36,255 bases of DNA. Source: a virus (taxonomy: Duplodnaviria > Heunggongvirae > Uroviricota > Caudoviricetes). The position numbers and the translations under genes were made by a program. Under the pieces are notes generated by a model that was not told the origin of the DNA, did no database searches, and was given only the letters and a program-made list of their open reading frames with translations. The stretch covers positions 1-36,255 of IMG/VR virus record IMGVR_UViG_2563366853_000005, one strand, 5' to 3'. Each line of letters starts with the position of its first letter. Within the stretch, counting starts at the first letter, position 1. Positions 1 through 36,255 of this stretch are shown here, one piece after another.

Positions 1-1293
<1,293 letters not shown>

Positions 1294-1448: not shown

Positions 1449-1598
1449 GGTGTCCTCATGAGTGAGGGAACCAAAAAGAAAACCCGCAGTTTTTACGCTG
1501 CGGGCTTGTTGTTCACGTCAACTGGAAATAGGGTGCCTTTTCGACCTTTACCCTGGCAACCGATTGACGGGGAAGTTGCCTTCCCCGTCGCGGTTTCC

Positions 1599-1739
1599 TT
1601 ACTGCTTACACTGTAAGAACGCCGCAAACTCCGCTCCCCAGAAACTCATCCGTATTTCACACAGCGAACCGTGCAGCATCCAGATGATGAGGATTGCCGT
1701 CACGCAGAATGTGATGGCCGTAAGCGATTTTTGCGACAT
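1599..1739 (-). CDS. Hok/Gef-family type I toxin, 46 aa (hand-translated; below the ORF-track size cut-off)
   Basis: ATG at 1739 preceded by AAGGAG 8 nt upstream; translation MSQKSLTAITFCVTAILIIWMLHGSLCEIRMSFWGAEFAAFLQCKQ; single N-terminal TM helix followed by SLCEIR...AAFL, the hallmark of Hok family proteins (compare R1 Hok ...[21 protein letters not shown]). Confidence 0.65.
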   Translation of the reverse strand: MSQKSLTAITFCVTAILIIWMLHGSLCEIRMSFWGAEFAAFLQCKQ

Positions 1740-1842
1740 AGCGCTTGCTCCTTTTTCGGGGAGGCGCTAACCTATCACTTGCTAAGGGTAGATGGTTAGG
1801 GCCTCGGGTTAACGTTAAAGTTGACTCGGGGCCTTTCCACAT
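1657..1842 (-). CDS. mok-like overlapping reading frame (putative translational coupler for hok)
   Basis: 61-codon ORF in a different frame overlapping the 5' part of the hok-like gene; ATG at 1842 with GAAGG 4 nt upstream; this arrangement is characteristic of hok/mok/sok loci. The protein itself has no recognisable features. Confidence 0.4.
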   Translation of the reverse strand: MWKGPESTLTLTRGPNHLPLASDRLAPPRKRSKRYVAKIAYGHHILRDGNPHHLDAARFAV

Positions 1843-1930
1843 CTGGCCTTCGGGTATTCCCTCCGACCATCAGCCGAAAGGCACCCGCACGTAATCTATC
1901 GCTTTTTTGTTACTCCGGCAATTCTGCCTG

Positions 1931-2191
1931 TTAATTCTGAGATAAAGGCAAACTCATCTGATTGTTTCCCCTGTGTGAAGCTGGCAGATCATGCCACGGG
2001 ATACCTTCTGAAGAGTGAACGCCGGAGGCGTGTTTTGATGTGAATTTATGGAAAGCTTCCAGTGTTGAGAAGCATACGCCGCATTCCAGATTGTTACACT
2101 GGTAATACTTTTGCCGCACGGTGTTTGAATCATTTTCCGGACGACTGGTGCGGATACGGGCAGATGCGCCACAAAGCGGACAACGGAACAT
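1931..2191 (-). CDS. ogr: Ogr/Delta-family zinc-finger late transcription activator
   Basis: MFRCPLCGASARIRTSR...YYQCNNLECGVCF matches P2 Ogr (MFHCPLCQHAAHARTSR...YHQCQNVNCSATF), a C-x2-C...C-x4-C zinc finger; GGGAGG RBS 6 nt upstream of the ATG at 2191. Confidence 0.8.
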   Translation of the reverse strand: MFRCPLCGASARIRTSRPENDSNTVRQKYYQCNNLECGVCFSTLEAFHKFTSKHASGVHSSEGIPWHDLPASHRGNNQMSLPLSQN

Positions 2192-2231: not shown

Positions 2232-3341
2232 TCACTCTGTTTCCGCTATCCATTCCGGGATTTTTGCCTCAAGCTCAAGCTGCGTGGTAAAGCCGCTGTT
2301 ATCAATGGTGTGCTCGGCTTTTGCAATGATCCAGTCCTGATTATCAATCTCGCTTTTAAATCCTGTTACCGTGCCATGCATTTCGGGGTAGAGTTCTGCA
2401 CGTCCACGCGCCAGCGTGATGGAGAATGATGCGGCTCCGCGTTGTAGTTGCTGCCACTTTGCCGCCGCTGCGCGTCTTGCTGCCTGCTCGTTCTGATAAG
2501 TCTTGCGTAACACAAACACATTGCCTTCCGCGCCTTCCATATAATCACCTTCACGGCTGCTGCTTTTCTCCTTTTTGGGTTTTGGCGGTTTACGGCGTTT
2601 CACGCTGACTTTTTTCTTTTTCCCGTAATTAAGATCAAGCCAGTAGGCGCGTACCCCCGTATACGCCTCGCGGTCAGCAATGCGGAACTGATGGCGATCG
2701 CCGCTGCTGCGTGTAATGGCGAACGAGGGCAACGGCTGGCCCTGTGCGTTCACGCCACCACCTGGCATGATGAATAACAGATTACCGCTTTTTACCGTGG
2801 TGATTGCGCCCAGCATTTCCGCCATGCGCGTAAGGAAGGACATGTCGCTTTCTTCGGTCTGGTCGGCGTGGTCGATTTCGATATCCATCAGCATTTCGCT
2901 GATTTGCGGTTTCAGGCCGTACCGATGAGCGATGGCGGATACCACACGCTCAACGGTCACATCATGCCAGGACACCTCACGTTTAACGTTAAATTCATCC
3001 CGAAAATCTGCGCTTCTGGCTGAAACAGTCAGCCTGTCCGGCGGTCCTTCGTGAGCGATTTCATCAACAATGTAAGTGCCTTTTTCTGTCAGCGGTTCTC
3101 CTTTCCAGCCAATGAGAACCGTCAGGCGCGCGCCCCGTGGCGGTAGCTGCAACTGACCATCCGCATCATCCAGCGTGATGGTGAGCTGGTCCGCGTCAAA
3201 TCCCCGGTTGTCGGTCAGTGACAGGCTCATCAGGCGCTCTGCCACGCCTGACAGCGTTTTACCCTCCGCGAGAATATCAAAATCCGGCATTTTCACGGGG
3301 TCTGTGCCCTGACTGAGCAATTGCATGGTGGTGTCGGTCAT
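2232..3341 (-). CDS. D: tail protein gpD
   Basis: Similarity to P2 gpD along the ORF; start chosen at the ATG at 3341 (MTDTTMQLLSQ...), preceded by GGGAGGGAACAG; the ORF track's longer 413-aa version begins upstream with no RBS. Confidence 0.85.
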   Translation of the reverse strand: MTDTTMQLLSQGTDPVKMPDFDILAEGKTLSGVAERLMSLSLTDNRGFDADQLTITLDDADGQLQLPPRGARLTVLIGWKGEPLTEKGTYIVDEIAHEGPPDRLTVSARSADFRDEFNVKREVSWHDVTVERVVSAIAHRYGLKPQISEMLMDIEIDHADQTEESDMSFLTRMAEMLGAITTVKSGNLLFIMPGGGVNAQGQPLPSFAITRSSGDRHQFRIADREAYTGVRAYWLDLNYGKKKKVSVKRRKPPKPKKEKSSSREGDYMEGAEGNVFVLRKTYQNEQAARRAAAAKWQQLQRGAASFSITLARGRAELYPEMHGTVTGFKSEIDNQDWIIAKAEHTIDNSGFTTQLELEAKIPEWIAETE

Positions 3342-3498
3342 CTGTTCCCTCCCTGTGCGGCATGGTCGCATGTGCGTGCGGAGGGGGTTACTGCTTTTTG
3401 TTGTCGCCGTGGCGGGAGAACGTCGCAGGGGTGAGATTACGCGCGTGGTGGGTGATGATTGTTGCCGAATCATTTAACGGATACAAGGGGCTGAAGCT
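3342..3498. promoter_or_regulatory. divergent intergenic region between D and FI (left junction of the inverted tail block; presumed late promoter region)
   Basis: 157 bp between two divergent late-gene starts; no perfect TGT-N12-ACA Ogr dyad found by eye. Confidence 0.35.
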
Positions 3499-24779: not shown

Positions 24780-26144
24780 ATGAATATAACTACTAATCAG
24801 AATGGTTTTGAGAATGGTTTTGATATTACATCTGACATATTTAATCGTAAGACATTATATGATCAAATGATACGGCTTATTATTAATGCTCCTGACTCAA
24901 ATTTGGTTTTTGCGTTAGATGATATATGGGGTAGCGGTAAAACATCATTTGTTAAGATGTTAAAATCAGAATTAGAATTAACTAATAGTGAATATATAGA
25001 TGTTGTTTATTTCGATGCATTTGAAAATGATTATCAATCAGATCCATTTATTTCAATATCATCTGAACTATATAATTTACTAAAACACAGAGGAGTAGAG
25101 GCCGAAGATGTAGCTGATCGCATTATTAAAACTGGTAAGAAAATAGGTGCAAAAATATTAATCGGAGGTGCAAAGGTAGCTATTACAACCCTGACAGCAG
25201 GTGTTGTGAATGGTTCTGCTCTTGATGAGGCAGGAAAAACAGTTAGCGATTCCATTAATAGTGAGTTAGAGTCTTTTGTTGAAGAGAAAATAAAATCCAT
25301 GGAGCAGGAAAAAAACTCAATTGCTGACTTTAAAAAAGCTTTAGAAGAAATATATACAAATACAAAGAGAAAAACCTTGATTATTATTGATGAACTTGAT
25401 CGAGCCCGCCCAGATTATTCTCTAGAGCTATTGGAAAAAATTAAGCATCTTTTTTCTGTGAAAGGTATGGTTTTCTTATTGGTAATGAATCGAGAGCAAT
25501 TTGAAAAGGGAATTGCATATAAATATGGTGATATCAATACTGGTCTGTACTTGAATAAATTTATTCATTATTGGTTTTCTTTGCCCAAAATAAATATGTA
25601 TGACTCTATGGTGTTACAAGCATCTAACAAAACAACGATTACAACGTATATTAAAAAAACTCTACAACAGAATCACTCTCTAGGTATTAATACAGATGGT
25701 GCTTTTGTAAGAGTCTTATCATGCTTGATTGAAACCAATAATTGCTCGCTGCGAGAAGTTGAACGATGTATTTCAACTATGCTTGTAGTGGATAATCATA
25801 CGTGTATAGCGAATAATGATGATAATTATTATATGATTGCATTAGCATTGGTTTGTTTCTTGAAAGTAACTTCTCCAGATATGTTAAATCGACTACTTAA
25901 GAAGGAAATGTCTTCTGAAGAGATATTAGAATTACTTAATATAAAATCTGATTATTTTTCATCAAAGACGGAAATTAAATTGCTTAAAGAACTATTGGAT
26001 TATTATTACATCGATAAAGAAACATTAAAACTATTACGTAATGAAAAGGGAAGTTATGTTCAGCGTATAGAAGGTGATTTTGCGTTTGAATATAACCATA
26101 TCTTTAATATTTCCACATCAATAGCTAATATGACTATAAAATAA
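24780..26144 (+). CDS. KAP-family P-loop NTPase (PifA-like), candidate anti-phage defence protein
   Basis: Walker A within DDIWGSGKTSF (aa 47-57, the WGSGK(T/S) form typical of KAP NTPases), Walker B LIIIDELDRA (aa about 199-208), a hydrophobic stretch GAKILIGGAKVAITTLTAGVV between them; GGAG RBS 5 nt upstream; visibly AT-rich relative to flanking phage genes. Confidence 0.8.
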   Translation: MNITTNQNGFENGFDITSDIFNRKTLYDQMIRLIINAPDSNLVFALDDIWGSGKTSFVKMLKSELELTNSEYIDVVYFDAFENDYQSDPFISISSELYNLLKHRGVEAEDVADRIIKTGKKIGAKILIGGAKVAITTLTAGVVNGSALDEAGKTVSDSINSELESFVEEKIKSMEQEKNSIADFKKALEEIYTNTKRKTLIIIDELDRARPDYSLELLEKIKHLFSVKGMVFLLVMNREQFEKGIAYKYGDINTGLYLNKFIHYWFSLPKINMYDSMVLQASNKTTITTYIKKTLQQNHSLGINTDGAFVRVLSCLIETNNCSLREVERCISTMLVVDNHTCIANNDDNYYMIALALVCFLKVTSPDMLNRLLKKEMSSEEILELLNIKSDYFSSKTEIKLLKELLDYYYIDKETLKLLRNEKGSYVQRIEGDFAFEYNHIFNISTSIANMTIK

Positions 26145-26364: not shown

Positions 26365-29127
26365 TTATTTGTTCCCACTCTTTACTCCTCTTCGCAGTAG
26401 GTCAGCTTTGTGGCAGGCGCGTTCGGTTGTTTCACAGATTCTTTGTGTGTGCTCTGTGTCGTGAATGGCGCGCAGCATGTCAGAAAGCACAGTAACGGGG
26501 GTTTTCATGGTGTTCTGGTCCTGCTGAAGTGTGGATGCCAGGCGTGCGGCGGCTTTGGGGTCTGATGCCCCCAGCTGTTCCAGATAGCTGGCGACCGGGT
26601 TATGGCGGATCTCCGTGCTGCTTACGCCGTGATTACGGCTCAGGCGCTGCCAGAGCTGCGTGATTCGGCTGTCCGGGCGGGTATCCGGTTTGCGTACAAT
26701 TTCAAATCCCTGCGGTGAAATGATGCTGCCGTCAACGTACAGACTGCCGCCCCGTAACAGGTGCTGCATCTGCTGTTCACCGATATGCAGGCCGAGAGAT
26801 TCAGCGGACTCCCGCCATTCTTTAGCGAGTAATTCGTGGTTATCAGGCAAAGGCCGCTGCTGTTTGCGGCTCTGTGTCCAGCTCTGCATTTCATCACTGC
26901 TGTTTTTTGCCTGTTTGTCACGCAGCGAACGCATCAGCGCCCGGCGTTCGTGCCGTTTCAGTGAGCGCATCCATTCATCCACATCAACGCCGTCAGGAAG
27001 CTGCGGCCACGGTGCTGGCCGTTCTTCCGGCTGTTCTGTCCCGTTGTTGTCCGTTTCCTGTACACGGGGACAGTTATTGCCACGAGTCCAAGGGGCGGCA
27101 GGGCCGCCCTGAAGGTCAAAACCATTTTCGCGGGCGCTGTCTTCCGCTTCCGGTTTGCGTCTTACCAGCTTCCAGTTATCCGGATGCGTGCACACACGGG
27201 AGGATTCCCCGATGAGTGGTGACCAGATCCCGTAAATCTGTACGCTCTGTTCGCCGTAATCGTTCAGCTCATCGGCGAGGTCGTAGGCGGTGCGAATCAG
27301 GTAGTCTTTGCGTGGAACAAGTACGCCGCCCTGTTTCTCTATGTAGGTGGCAAAACATCCTGCATCAGCGGCAGCGAGTACCGCATCCATTGCGTCATCC
27401 TTCAGCCGTTGCGGGCCTTCCGGGTTGCGTGCCATCTGGCTGGCAAGGCGGCGGAGTTCACGCCACACCTGACGGGAGGGGATGCCAAAGAACTGGAACT
27501 GGCGGACCCGGTGAAGGCGTGCCCAACCGATGGCGCGCTCCACGCTCTCGGCCATTGATTTTCCGGTTTCGTGGTCAACGCGTGGTTTGCCTGTTTTCTG
27601 GTCGATGCCATCCACGGCGCGGCTGTCCAGGTTTTTTCCGATGTAGGTGGCGATGTAGCTGGTTGGCGTGCCTTTTGAGCCGTCGACATACTCCGCCTTA
27701 AAGCGCGGAGTAATATCATCGCCCAGCTCGTGACGATCTTCCTGAATGGCAATATCGCGGGTGTGGGACACAATGGTGTCGATTTCTTCCGGATGAGCAA
27801 AGACCATCATATGCCAGTGCACGGTGCCGTCATGGTGAGGCTCCACCGTGCGGATGCCATACCAGCGCAGGCCGTCGCGGTTCAGTTTCTTGCGGACCGC
27901 TGCAAAAAACGTGTTAACCAGGTAATCGCTGGAGTCGCGCATGGTGGCCCCGTTCCATTTGGGATTCGGATGACCGTTCTCTGTTGTGGCGTGGTATTTT
28001 GACGGGCAGGTGACAGTCAGAAACACCGCTTTGTCGCCACGGGCTTCGGCCAGAAGTTCCAGCCCCTTCATGGTGGCCATCATTTCTGCCTTACGGTGAA
28101 CCGGGTTACTTACTCCCGCGTAATACACTGTCTCGAGATCAATCGTGAACCCGTCTTCGTTTTCCAGCATGAAACTTTTCAGGAAATCGCGTGTTTTCTC
28201 GCGCTGTGCGCGAAACTCGCTTAACGCGTCCTGGCTCAGATAGGGTGATGTTTTTCTGGAAACCAGACAGGCGGCGCGGAGTTGTTCTTCTCTCCACTCG
28301 CAACGTAACAGCCACAGTTTGCGTTTCCACCATTCCGCACAGGTCAGGCGAAGGATTGCGCCCGGCAGCAGCTCCGTGTCCGGTTCGTTCCTCCGGTCTT
28401 TATCTGTTGTCAGTGCGTCATAATGTGGAGGCATGATGTGCAGGTGTAACGCCATGCGGGCCAGCATCTGATACGCCTTCAGCGTTACATCCATGGTCAG
28501 TTCGCCATCGGTCGCGCCAAAGCCATCGCAGAGTTTTTCGAAGGTGCTGCTGAACATCGCCGCCGTCATGGTGGCCAGCGTCTGTATCTGGTGTTTGTTG
28601 AGCTGCGGCAGGTAAAGCAAATCGTCCAGGCGTTCGCGTCCGGCAAGGGAGCGATAACCCGGTGTCAGCCAGTGTCCGTCAGTGCGATCCAGACGTTCGA
28701 ATATTTTGCGCAGGGTTCCGCGTGCATAGCGTTCCGCCTGCCAGCTCTTTTTGCCTTTCCGGCGATCGGCTTCCTGTTTTTTGCGCAGGAAGGAGAGGTG
28801 GCGAATAAGTGGATCGCGCAGATAGGACGGCAGCAGGCGCAGCGAGGCCATGGCTTCATCCACCGCGCCGCGTGCCTGTTTTCTGGCGTCTCCTGCCAGT
28901 GCGATGGTTTTGTCCTGTTTTTCCTGTGCGTCCAGGCTTTTATTAATCAGGTTGCCCAGCGGCGTGGCGGAGAACGCCGCATCAGCCATTTTCTGGCGGC
29001 GCTCGTTCTCTGCCCGGTAGGCATCCAGCCAGGAGGAAAGCACGGATTCAGGAGCGGGGATCCCCGTTCCTTCACGCCCTACTGCGTGGCGCGGTTGTTG
29101 CCAGTCCCTGATGTACTCTGTCGTCAT
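26365..29127 (-). CDS. A: replication initiation protein gpA (rolling-circle HUH endonuclease); start uncertain, C-terminal extension relative to P2 A
   Basis: Blocks shared with P2 A including VEPHHDGTVHWHMMVF (P2: VEPHHDGTPHWHMML), FLTVTCPSKYH (P2: FITLTAPSKYH), YIATYIGKNLD (P2: YIAKYISKNID). Confidence 0.85.
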   Translation of the reverse strand: MTTEYIRDWQQPRHAVGREGTGIPAPESVLSSWLDAYRAENERRQKMADAAFSATPLGNLINKSLDAQEKQDKTIALAGDARKQARGAVDEAMASLRLLPSYLRDPLIRHLSFLRKKQEADRRKGKKSWQAERYARGTLRKIFERLDRTDGHWLTPGYRSLAGRERLDDLLYLPQLNKHQIQTLATMTAAMFSSTFEKLCDGFGATDGELTMDVTLKAYQMLARMALHLHIMPPHYDALTTDKDRRNEPDTELLPGAILRLTCAEWWKRKLWLLRCEWREEQLRAACLVSRKTSPYLSQDALSEFRAQREKTRDFLKSFMLENEDGFTIDLETVYYAGVSNPVHRKAEMMATMKGLELLAEARGDKAVFLTVTCPSKYHATTENGHPNPKWNGATMRDSSDYLVNTFFAAVRKKLNRDGLRWYGIRTVEPHHDGTVHWHMMVFAHPEEIDTIVSHTRDIAIQEDRHELGDDITPRFKAEYVDGSKGTPTSYIATYIGKNLDSRAVDGIDQKTGKPRVDHETGKSMAESVERAIGWARLHRVRQFQFFGIPSRQVWRELRRLASQMARNPEGPQRLKDDAMDAVLAAADAGCFATYIEKQGGVLVPRKDYLIRTAYDLADELNDYGEQSVQIYGIWSPLIGESSRVCTHPDNWKLVRRKPEAEDSARENGFDLQGGPAAPWTRGNNCPRVQETDNNGTEQPEERPAPWPQLPDGVDVDEWMRSLKRHERRALMRSLRDKQAKNSSDEMQSWTQSRKQQRPLPDNHELLAKEWRESAESLGLHIGEQQMQHLLRGGSLYVDGSIISPQGFEIVRKPDTRPDSRITQLWQRLSRNHGVSSTEIRHNPVASYLEQLGASDPKAAARLASTLQQDQNTMKTPVTVLSDMLRAIHDTEHTQRICETTERACHKADLLRRGVKSGNK

Positions 29128-29848: not shown

Positions 29849-30045
29849 GAGTTGAGAATCTCGGGGTGGCGAGACGTACGGGGTTCTCAACACCGGCAAA
29901 CGAAGAAACCGGCCCGACCGAAGTCGGCCCCGTACGCCCCACCATAATTCTGATGCGAAAAAGACGTGGCAATACAGTACGCACAAAAAAACCGCTGGCG
30001 CGGTTGTGCGCTTCGTTTGTCAGCAGGTTGAGAATCCCGGCACCC
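29849..30045. repeat. cluster of GTTGAGAA(T/C)C-CGG motif copies (two direct, one inverted) in a structured non-coding region
   Basis: GTTGAGAATCTCGGGG at 29851-29866; inverted copy GGGGTTCTCAAC at 29882-29893; direct copy GTTGAGAATCCCGG at 30027-30040; CTTCGTTTG flanks the second and third copies in inverted orientation. Confidence 0.6.
29985..30005 (-). terminator. intrinsic terminator (minus strand)
   Basis: Stem AACCGC / GCGGTT (29990-30005) with loop TGGC; on the minus strand followed by a U-run (A-run 29985-29991 on plus). Confidence 0.5.
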
Positions 30046-30141
30046 GTTTTATGAGGTGCAGCAGAAATGTAACCTGACTGATTGCGGCATGGCAAGCGGT
30101 TTTTTTGTGAGAACGGCATACTAAAAAAATCCTGATACTGC

Positions 30142-35193: not shown

Positions 35194-35262
35194 CTCTACA
35201 CATTGAGCGAATTACATATCGCAAGGAGTGTTTAGTTAATTTATCCGTTGGAGGGGCTAATC

Positions 35263-36255
35263 ATGTCGATTAAGCAACTCAAAGACGGACGTTATCAGGT
35301 CGATGTCAGACCGCAGGGGGCGGAAGGAAAGCGGATTCGAAAAATCTTTGCCCTGAAATCAAAGGCTCAGGAGTTTGAGAAGTATGTGTTACAGAACTTT
35401 CATGACAAGCCATGGCAGGCTAAGCCAGCTGATCAGCGGCGATTATCAGAGCTGCTTGATGCGTGGTGGATGCTTGATGGTCGTAATCAGGCTTACGGGG
35501 ATAGCTACAGGGTTAGGCTAGGGAAGGTTGTTCGTGAAATGGGAGATCCTCGCGCCAGTCAGATGACGCGAAAATTTATGCTTGAATATCGGTCAGAGAA
35601 ATTACAGGCTGGATTAATGCCGTCCAGTATTAATCGTGACTTATGCGTACTGTCTACCATGTTCACGGTGCTGATTGAAGCTGAGGTCTTTCACAACGCG
35701 AACCCTGTACGCGGTATACGAAAACTGAAAGTTCAGAACACAGAGATGGCCTTTCTTTCTGATGATGAGATTGAACGGCTTCTTGAGCGACTGGAGGGTG
35801 ATGCGCGTCGTGTTGCCATTCTGTGTCTTTCTACTGGTGCCCGATGGAGTGAAGCATCGGAACTACGTGGAGAGCATATCGTTGGCAACCGGGTGACGTT
35901 CTTTAACACCAAAAACGGAAAATCCCGTTCGGTTCCTGTGGCGGATTCGGTCGTGCCTCTGATTAAAACCCGTCGAACGGGGTTATTGTATCAGGTTGAT
36001 TATCTGAAGTTCCGGGAGATTCTTCAGGAGGTGAAACCGGATTTGCCGAAGGGGCAGGCTACGCATGTCATGCGTCATACATTTGCCACACACTTTATGA
36101 TGAATGGCGGAAATATTGTTACGTTGCAACGAATCCTGGGGCACGCAACGATTCAGCAAACAATGACGTACGCTCATTTTTCGCCGGACTTCTTACAGGA
36201 CGCGATCAACTTTAATCCGCTGGCTGAAAGTGTCCATAAACTGTCCATCGATTAG
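35263..36255 (+). CDS. int: tyrosine integrase, P2 Int family (start at ATG 35263; track start 35248 is TTG)
   Basis: MSIKQLKDGRYQVDVRPQG aligns to the P2 Int N-terminus (MAIKKLDDGRYEVDIRPTG); catalytic region ...HVMRHTFATHFMMNGGNIVTLQRILGHATIQQTMTYAHF with the conserved R, H-x-x-R and Y; GGAGGGG RBS 5 nt upstream; stop TAG at 36253-36255. Confidence 0.9.
   Translation: MSIKQLKDGRYQVDVRPQGAEGKRIRKIFALKSKAQEFEKYVLQNFHDKPWQAKPADQRRLSELLDAWWMLDGRNQAYGDSYRVRLGKVVREMGDPRASQMTRKFMLEYRSEKLQAGLMPSSINRDLCVLSTMFTVLIEAEVFHNANPVRGIRKLKVQNTEMAFLSDDEIERLLERLEGDARRVAILCLSTGARWSEASELRGEHIVGNRVTFFNTKNGKSRSVPVADSVVPLIKTRRTGLLYQVDYLKFREILQEVKPDLPKGQATHVMRHTFATHFMMNGGNIVTLQRILGHATIQQTMTYAHFSPDFLQDAINFNPLAESVHKLSID

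Follow-up and report, generated by a model that had tools for sequence, protein, structure and literature searches.

For the hok/sok (parB) locus of plasmid R1, control of the toxin has been described as a logic of pairings, between the mRNA elements tac and fbi, between tac and ucb, and between the Shine-Dalgarno (SD) sequence and dcb, with the last stem-loop of the processed mRNA guarding it against 3' exonucleases (PMC9841398). In hokW-sokW, the system of the Shiga toxin (Stx) 2 prophage Sp5, the antisense RNA SokW is 71 nt long, complementary to the 5' untranslated region of its target and dependent on RNase III and Hfq (PMC8621323). A preprint that sorts Hok peptides into 61 clusters reports, in its text and Table S2, a toxicity screen of 45 homologues, of which only 19_179, 60_1482 and 69_1540 were non-toxic (Escalera-Maurer et al., 10.1101/2025.08.07.668861). 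Here we describe a locus at one end of a 36,255-nucleotide stretch of viral DNA (IMG/VR record IMGVR_UViG_2563366853_000005, positions 1 to 36,255; from here on, the window). Very probably it is a complete type I toxin-antitoxin cassette of the hok/sok type (around 1472–1921), a moron lying between ogr and attP in a prophage of the P88 type (Xuanwuvirus, P2-like) whose integration site is the serS terminator.

The toxin gene, hok (1599–1739, minus strand), encodes a peptide of 46 amino acids, MSQKSLTAITFCVTAILIIWMLHGSLCEIRMSFWGAEFAAFLQCKQ, in which an amino-terminal hydrophobic helix is followed by SLCEIR...AAFLQC. The 15-residue Kyte-Doolittle mean is 1.8–2.55 for windows starting at residues 4–13, and residues C12, T14, L26-C27-E28 and E37 can be read as C16, T18, L30-C31-E32 and E41 of the family logo. 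An AAGGAG Shine-Dalgarno sequence (1753–1748, minus strand), conserved in the alignment of homologues, lies 8 nt 5' of the ATG. The frame, the strong ribosome-binding site and the single transmembrane helix with its Hok signature are thus as the original prediction, made from the sequence alone, had described them. Comparison with the Hok/Gef profile bears the assignment out: Pfam HOK_GEF (PF01848) scores 29.9 bits against a gathering threshold of 22 (E = 4e-7), residues 7–44 aligning with positions 5–42 of the 42-position profile, and PHROG 251 ('MokW-like host killing') matches over the full length with 80.6 bits (E = 1e-22). The ORF (open reading frame) corresponds to RefSeq entry WP_000078916.1, 'Hok/Gef family protein', and the exact peptide occurs on at least 1000 contigs of Escherichia, Shigella and Salmonella. 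Over 14 homologues dN/dS is 0–0.54, so that the frame is under purifying selection; the value for ETEC1716 was disregarded, a one-codon insertion shifting that comparison. By these matches the ORF is a real Hok/Gef-family toxin gene, already annotated and catalogued. Some databases label the peptide 'protein HokA', and HokA (NF007290) is the top NCBIfam model, but its 34 bits against an equivalog cut-off of 89 rule that name out. The plus-strand ORF 1462–1770 (102 amino acids), antisense to hok, was judged a by-product of the open frame.

An identical peptide is listed in Table S2 of the preprint as 72_1621, a member of the high-abundance Hok cluster 72, and was cloned as plasmid LRP137 for the arabinose-induction toxicity screen (10.1101/2025.08.07.668861). 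As it is absent from the three non-toxic homologues named in the text, 72_1621 would, by elimination, be toxic to E. coli on overexpression. The toxicity assay that had been proposed for the peptide is therefore one that the published screen already contains, with a result that is positive by the same elimination.

The mRNA would be transcribed from a promoter predicted at 1921–1893 (minus strand), with a –35 hexamer TTGCCG (1921–1916), a 17-nt spacer and a –10 hexamer TAGATT (1898–1893). The hexamers are kept across the homologues, as TTGCC or TTGCG (TTGAT in one copy) and TA(G/A/C)A(T/A/G)T, and their flanks are wholly divergent in other genomic contexts. The alignment used here and below comprises 15–16 homologues with 73–99% identity. 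It draws on P2-like prophages inserted at serS or ihfA, on phages P88, Chuche and P88_4B11, on Stx phages in which the cassette is adjacent to lom, and on chromosomal islands. The whole of Rfam model RF01794 ('sok', positions 1–157) can be aligned with 1886–1726 of the minus strand (E = 5e-8), its position 1 falling on 1886; from this alignment the leader is homologous to those of the R1 type but divergent, and the mRNA 5' end is placed at about 1886 (GGGUGCCUUUCGG). A plus-strand antisense hit had been expected from this model, and was discarded when the match fell on the minus strand. Compared with R1-type sequences, RF01794 proves to follow the strand of the hok leader, beginning at tac and ending at the hok AUG, so the hit supports leader homology and not a Sok transcript as such; hits of this model land on the toxin strand and could mislead automated annotation of sok genes.

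Each element of the R1-type mRNA has a counterpart in the window. The tac element, GGGUGCCUUUCGGCU (1872–1886, minus strand), forms the 5' end and is invariant in 15 of the 16 homologues, while the fbi element, GGUCGAAAAGGCACCC (1531–1546, minus strand), is complementary to the first 15 nt of the mRNA and pairs in the minimum-free-energy (MFE) structure; the tac-fbi pairing probability is 0.83–1.0 in all 16. A ucb-like box, GGAAAGGCCCC (1828–1838, minus strand), pairs with tac in the MFE structure of the truncated mRNA, and the RNAalifold consensus likewise pairs nucleotides 1–11 with 50–59 (tac/ucb). Alignment places a GAGGC box (1801–1805, minus strand) where the mok Shine-Dalgarno sequence lies in R1. 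The equivalent of R1 dcb is the GCGCCUCC box (1760–1767, minus strand), an anti-SD sequence within a 13-nt block that is invariant in the alignment, which has two alternative partners, the hok SD and the upstream GAGGC. When it pairs with the former, the hairpin GCGC-CUCC...GGAG-CAA-GCGC (1767–1741, minus strand; –13.0 kcal/mol) encloses the hok SD, in agreement with the original prediction.

Directly 3' of the hok stop codon is a stem-loop with a perfect 10-bp stem (1566–1575 and 1580–1589, minus strand; –23.1 kcal/mol, z = –5.7), in which compensatory double changes are found at four base pairs across the homologues. The hairpin itself had been noted before; as a terminator it does not hold, for there is no U-run 3' of it on the mRNA strand, and the intrinsic terminator found by the scan lies further on (1507–1472, minus strand; –16.3 kcal/mol, z = –3.9), with its stem at 1507–1480 followed by UUUUCUUUUU. 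This terminator is conserved in the P2-like copies and absent from the Stx-phage copies. By analogy with R1, the perfect stem-loop is predicted to protect the 3' end of hok mRNA once it has been processed (truncated). The full-length RNA (1886–1528) folds with –154.5 kcal/mol (z = –6.2), its ends paired and the SD hairpin formed. When the RNA is truncated just 3' of the perfect stem-loop, a local 5' stem appears instead (nucleotides 1–11 with 49–59, the ucb equivalent), a GAGGC (82–86)/GCCUC (122–126) stem is formed and the SD hairpin is dissolved. Both states are predictions: tac-fbi pairing closes the RNA at full length, and a local tac/ucb stem takes over once the 3' end is removed. According to RNAalifold, 12 pairs carry compensatory double changes, including the four of the 3' stem-loop and some in the apical tac hairpin.

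On the opposite strand, a sok promoter is predicted at 1745–1773 (plus strand), with a –35 hexamer TTGCTC (1745–1750), a 17-nt spacer and a –10 hexamer TAACCT (1768–1773). These hexamers have the same place and form as TTGCGC-N17-TATCCT in the R1-type sequence, and the –10 hexamer, inside the 13-nt invariant block, is invariant in 15 homologues. The predicted Sok RNA, of about 60 nt (1780–1840, plus strand), would consist of a 5' tail of about 18 nt, a 16-bp terminator hairpin (1798–1835) and a final UUU; its complement is covered by the RF01794 leader match. The region folds with –30.9 kcal/mol (z = –5.7) on the plus strand and –15.3 on the complement, which is less stable because three G-U pairs turn into C-A mismatches, and in each of the 15 homologues the plus-strand hairpin is the more stable one, by 5–17 kcal/mol. 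A plus-strand Sok-like RNA had been anticipated at around 1800–1910; by the hairpin and the hexamers it would lie at about 1780–1840.

The window opens with serS (1–1293, plus strand). The attachment core of the prophage, the 20-bp AAAGCGCCTGCGGGCGCTTT (1316–1335), coincides with the stem of the serS terminator. In alignment the core is identical at attL in the window, at attR in the interval between int and dmsA of NZ_CP023844.1, and at the empty attB of strain 2A. The attR sequence was taken from a near relative of the prophage that occupies the same serS site and whose left end has 99.8% identity to the window; direct attachment repeats were not found within the window itself, which stops at the stop codon of int. 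Some match to the sequence downstream of serS is present in 5424 of 5426 complete E. coli genomes; in the prophage-free genomes listed it ends at window position 1335, and in a prophage-free strain dmsA follows directly after serS. In 293 genomes a single match spans at least 80% of the interval from serS to ogr, consistent with the same junction. All DNA from 1336 onward is then, on the evidence of these alignments, phage DNA, and the hok cassette (1531–1921) is cargo of the prophage, lying some 200 bp in from its left end. Comparison with prophage-free strains, as had been suggested for placing attL and attR, thus puts the cassette beside ogr just inside the left end, in line with the prophage-end module that had been proposed, and not at the attachment site itself, where it had been thought to sit.

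Integration leaves the serS terminator stem rebuilt at attL, with its U-tract exchanged, GCGCTTTaagtag standing in place of GCGCTTTTTTTG. About 80 nt past the attachment core, the phage arm has a strong plus-strand terminator of its own (1412–1448, a 12-bp stem followed by GTTTTTT), which could halt read-through from serS before it enters hok in antisense.

A homologous cassette is found in 1756 of the 5426 complete E. coli genomes, and among the matches listed, all that cover the hok ORF are annotated as Hok/Gef. The cassette adjoins ogr in phages P88, Chuche and P88_4B11 and in the prophages at serS and ihfA. In the Stx-phage, lom-adjacent copies, homology spans exactly from the hok –35 hexamer to fbi (1921–1531). 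These bounds define a mobile unit, which, on this distribution of sequences, moves as one block among P2-like phages, Stx phages and islands.

Several individual copies deserve mention. In NZ_CP075652.1 (strain STEC17-183, 1501–2410), a P2-like prophage at serS has two tandem hok cassettes of the same subgroup before ogr, both annotated as Hok/Gef. In some genomes and in one 129-kb plasmid, the cassette match is in two pieces over about 790 bp (for example NZ_CP195580.1, 1345301–1346095), with a gene for a 'TM2 domain-containing protein' annotated inside, which suggests insertion into the hok locus. NZ_CP035755.1, a 25-kb extrachromosomal record of E. coli E110019, holds a decayed ogr-hok copy in which hok is broken after 15 codons and ogr is frameshifted; it adjoins a Com/methyltransferase pair, as in phage Chuche. 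In VT2-Sakai and Shigella phage 75/02 Stx, a cluster-72 hok cassette lies between lom and L0129. This lom-adjacent cassette is distinct from hokW and is unannotated in older records (933W, VT2-Sakai).

From these elements a mode of action can be proposed. From a weak promoter (transcription start at about 1886), the minus strand would give a stable mRNA of about 415 nt, ending at the terminator 1507–1480. In the full-length RNA, 5' tac would pair with 3' fbi and the hok SD would be locked in the hairpin between GCGCCUCC and GGAG...GCGC, so that no toxin is made. Once 3' trimming, a slow process, had reached the perfect stem-loop (1589–1566), fbi would be gone; the 5' end would then refold onto ucb, and GAGGC (1805–1801) would capture GCCUC and free the hok ribosome-binding site. 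The short, unstable Sok RNA of the plus strand (about 1780–1840) would pair with the leader of the processed mRNA, at about +47 to +110, leading to cleavage of the duplex and masking the SD again. When the supply of Sok ends, through loss of the prophage or through shut-off in induction or infection, the 46-residue Hok would be made and would damage the inner membrane. We infer the promoters, the RNA ends, the action of Sok and a direct, mok-independent control of the hok SD from homology, conservation and folding.

Three roles were considered for such a cassette, which may stabilise the prophage by post-segregational killing, help lysis on induction or exclude other phages. That it serves one of the latter two, faster lysis of the host or abortion of infection by other phages, and not post-segregational killing, is quite possible if short of probable. 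For hokW-sokW of Sp5, SokW is lost after mitomycin C treatment, HokW appears before the endolysin and phage release is doubled (PMC8621323), and prophages are, as already published, four-fold enriched in hok genes. In the window there is no terminator between D-ogr and hok, and ogr transcription would therefore extend into the cassette, where it could outrun Sok; as speculation, read-through from D-ogr fits a tie to the lytic programme. On the other hand, according to the preprint's table, HokW belongs to a different, HokD-like cluster (35) and not to cluster 72, and PADLOC has no model that matches the cassette or its Hok peptide.

The cassette could also be regulated exactly as in R1, through translation of a mok frame, for which the original prediction had proposed the 61-codon ORF 1657–1842 (minus strand); we consider this unlikely. 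The ORF does overlap hok in the –1 frame, with a codon boundary 1 nt ahead of the hok ATG, and R1 mok stands in this frame to its own hok too. It is open in the window, all 16 homologues retain its ATG (1842, +45) preceded by GAAGG, and the predicted 3' end of Sok abuts this ATG. The length of the frame, however, is not conserved. From the aligned ATG, 14 of 15 homologues have only 24, 24, 19, 19, 17, 17, 15, 15, 8, 8, 8, 8, 1 and 1 codons (the last two reading ATG-TGA), all ending before the hok SD, and the one longer frame, of 40 codons, is that of the E110019 locus, where hok is degenerate. Chuche and P88_4B11, with an identical Hok, and P88, with one residue different, are without a leader ORF that reaches the SD. 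Such an ORF, starting upstream of the Sok target, is present in three of 15 homologues, two of them using a different ATG at +17 and the third the aligned ATG (+44) of the degenerate-hok locus.

Nor is there a start codon where R1 has one. At the position of the R1 mok start, –58 from hok and after the GAGG box, none of 15 homologues has ATG, GTG or TTG. As a positive control, seven plasmid loci of the R1 type were compared (79–100% identity in the hok coding sequence), six of them with an intact leader; all six have a start codon (ATG or TTG) exactly at –58, in the same frame and behind GAGG, 7–9 nt downstream of the GAGG(C) box. The Mok family DUF5431 (Pfam PF17496) gives no match to the 61-residue product at E values up to 10, as opposed to 140 bits for R1 Mok, and the product has no NCBIfam or PHROG match. 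The spacing from AAGG to the ATG at 1842 is very short. The position of the ATG in the tac/ucb stem region, together with its complementarity to the 3' tail of Sok, can explain why it is conserved. Given the unconserved length, the missing R1-position start and the lack of a DUF5431 match, the ORF is probably fortuitous in this copy; the overlap with hok stands, its reading as mok does not.

How hok would be controlled without mok is suggested by the behaviour of the GCCUCC box. Mean unpaired probability over the 7-nt SD window did not discriminate the states, and explicit pairing probabilities, of the anti-SD with the SD and with GAGGC, were used instead. In nine of 16 homologues, anti-SD/SD pairing falls from 0.34–0.71 in the full-length RNA to at most 0.05 in the truncated one, while GCCUC/GAGGC pairing rises to at least 0.93; when the Sok target (+47 to about +110, containing GAGGC) is blocked in these nine, anti-SD/SD pairing returns to the full-length level. 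We hold at little short of an even chance that the GCCUCC box, in the folds predicted here, toggles between the hok SD and GAGGC as a control without mok, a rating kept down because the switch is weak or absent in five homologues. It is quite possible, though short of probable, that cluster-72 cassettes (P88-like, lom-adjacent Stx and those of several chromosomal islands) are a mok-less variant of hok/sok. In these, GAGGC, having lost its start codon, would act purely as an anti-anti-SD towards the invariant GCCUCC, and 3' processing and Sok would gate hok directly, without a leader peptide.

Several observations weigh against the reading of the locus as a complete hok/sok-type cassette with the mode of action proposed above. 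The unmasking switch is clean in only the nine homologues mentioned, being partial in two others, and its prediction depends on the truncated 3' end chosen. R1 hok has an equally strong SD and still needs translation of mok (PMC9841398), so that direct initiation in our cassette can only be inferred. A consensus promoter scan returned no sites, hok and sok promoters both falling below threshold, and the two were assigned by homology and conservation only. The covariance-model check, which aligned the leader over the full RF01794 model, gave 42.7 bits, below the family's gathering score of 59. As tac is invariant, the tac-fbi pairing is backed by one-sided changes and energy and not by true covariation, and the terminator tail of Sok is only UUU. 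Finally, as far as the preprint's text and Table S2 go, the toxicity of 72_1621 is reached by elimination and not from a per-sequence result (Fig. S4).

It is very improbable that the locus is a decayed, non-functional remnant, like several of the hok loci on the K-12 chromosome. Decayed homologues do exist, as in E110019, with hok and ogr frameshifted, and in the copies split by the TM2-domain gene, and the weakness of both promoters by consensus would fit decay. In the window copy, however, all elements are intact and the same cassette is present in the deposited phages P88 and Chuche; its ORF is under purifying selection, its RNA stems show compensatory changes, and the peptide is not one of those that the screen names as non-toxic. 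That the locus is instead a chromosomal hok resident downstream of serS and independent of the prophage, as its position in the serS-to-ogr intergenic region, outside the phage ORFs, had allowed the original prediction to suppose, is refuted by the mapping of attB, attL and attR, since the attachment core at 1316–1335 leaves the locus inside the prophage, homology in the listed prophage-free genomes stops short of it, and the cassette travels with ogr in prophages at ihfA and in free phage genomes.

The length-filtered ORF track of the window had missed hok, a real toxin gene. The value of this for annotation is small. The gene had already been annotated and catalogued, and a published toxicity screen had covered it. 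Cassettes of this kind may stabilise prophages or tune lysis, and so bear on how temperate phages persist and are released in pathogenic E. coli. That mok seems to be missing from the very abundant Hok cluster 72 is the sole point that may interest specialists in type I toxin-antitoxin systems.

Beyond the cassette, the window continues with ogr (1931–2191, minus strand; Pfam Ogr_Delta), gpD (2232–3473, minus strand) and, from there onward, the tail sheath and tube genes, and it ends at its right edge with the gene for a tyrosine integrase (35248–36255). The nearest deposited phages to the prophage are Chuche and two members of the genus Xuanwuvirus (Peduoviridae), P88 and P88_4B11. Two Rfam matches above the gathering threshold, to C4 antisense RNA (29862–29949, minus strand; 79.2 bits) and to the Hfq-binding RNA isrK (29985–30059, minus strand; 62 bits), fall in the prophage's early/replication region. 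A 454-residue P-loop NTPase of the KAP family (24780–26144, plus strand; Pfam 132.9 bits), matching the PADLOC candidate defence family PDC-S20 with 254 bits, is encoded between the portal gene and a 920-residue ORF (26365–29127) taken as the replication gene; this site may be a P2-like cargo or defence hotspot.

Compared with the systems described, R1 hok/sok (parB) is the closest characterised architecture, and Hok cluster 72 the closest catalogued entity. With R1 the cassette shares a small, single-helix Hok with the LCE motif, a leader that can be aligned over the whole of RF01794, the pairing of the ends through tac and fbi, ucb, the GAGG box, dcb and the protective 3' stem-loop. It also shares, by prediction here, a Sok of about 60 nt with a promoter of the form TTGCNC-N17-TAnCCT inside the hok ribosome-binding region. 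It differs from R1 in its peptide, of 46 residues instead of 52 and ending in ...AAFLQCKQ, in the lack of a conserved mok, or of a start codon after the GAGG box, throughout its subgroup, in having fbi followed by a separate intrinsic terminator, and in its carrier, a prophage and not a plasmid.

With cluster 72 there is no difference at the peptide level, 72_1621 being identical residue for residue; 72_1589 of the same cluster is the lom-adjacent Stx-phage variant and was also cloned for toxicity assays. The preprint, in its text and Table S2, leaves Sok, the mRNA structure and the position relative to ogr and attP outside its analysis, as it does, explicitly, mok (10.1101/2025.08.07.668861). 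Like our cassette, hokW-sokW of Sp5 is of the hok/sok type and borne by a prophage (Takada et al. 2021, PMC8621323), and phage databases give the window ORF the MokW-like label of its PHROG. The peptides differ, HokW having 51 residues (MKQQKAM...DYESEK) and being grouped with HokD in cluster 35 of the preprint's table. It was considered whether the Stx-phage relative of our cassette might itself be the characterised hokW. This was ruled out by HokW's cluster and by the absence of the hokW primer sequence from the lom-adjacent locus of VT2-Sakai; phages of the Sp5 type therefore have two hok loci, of which the characterised one is not the orthologue. Judged on these sequence comparisons, hokW-sokW is a functional analogue of the cassette described here, and not its orthologue.

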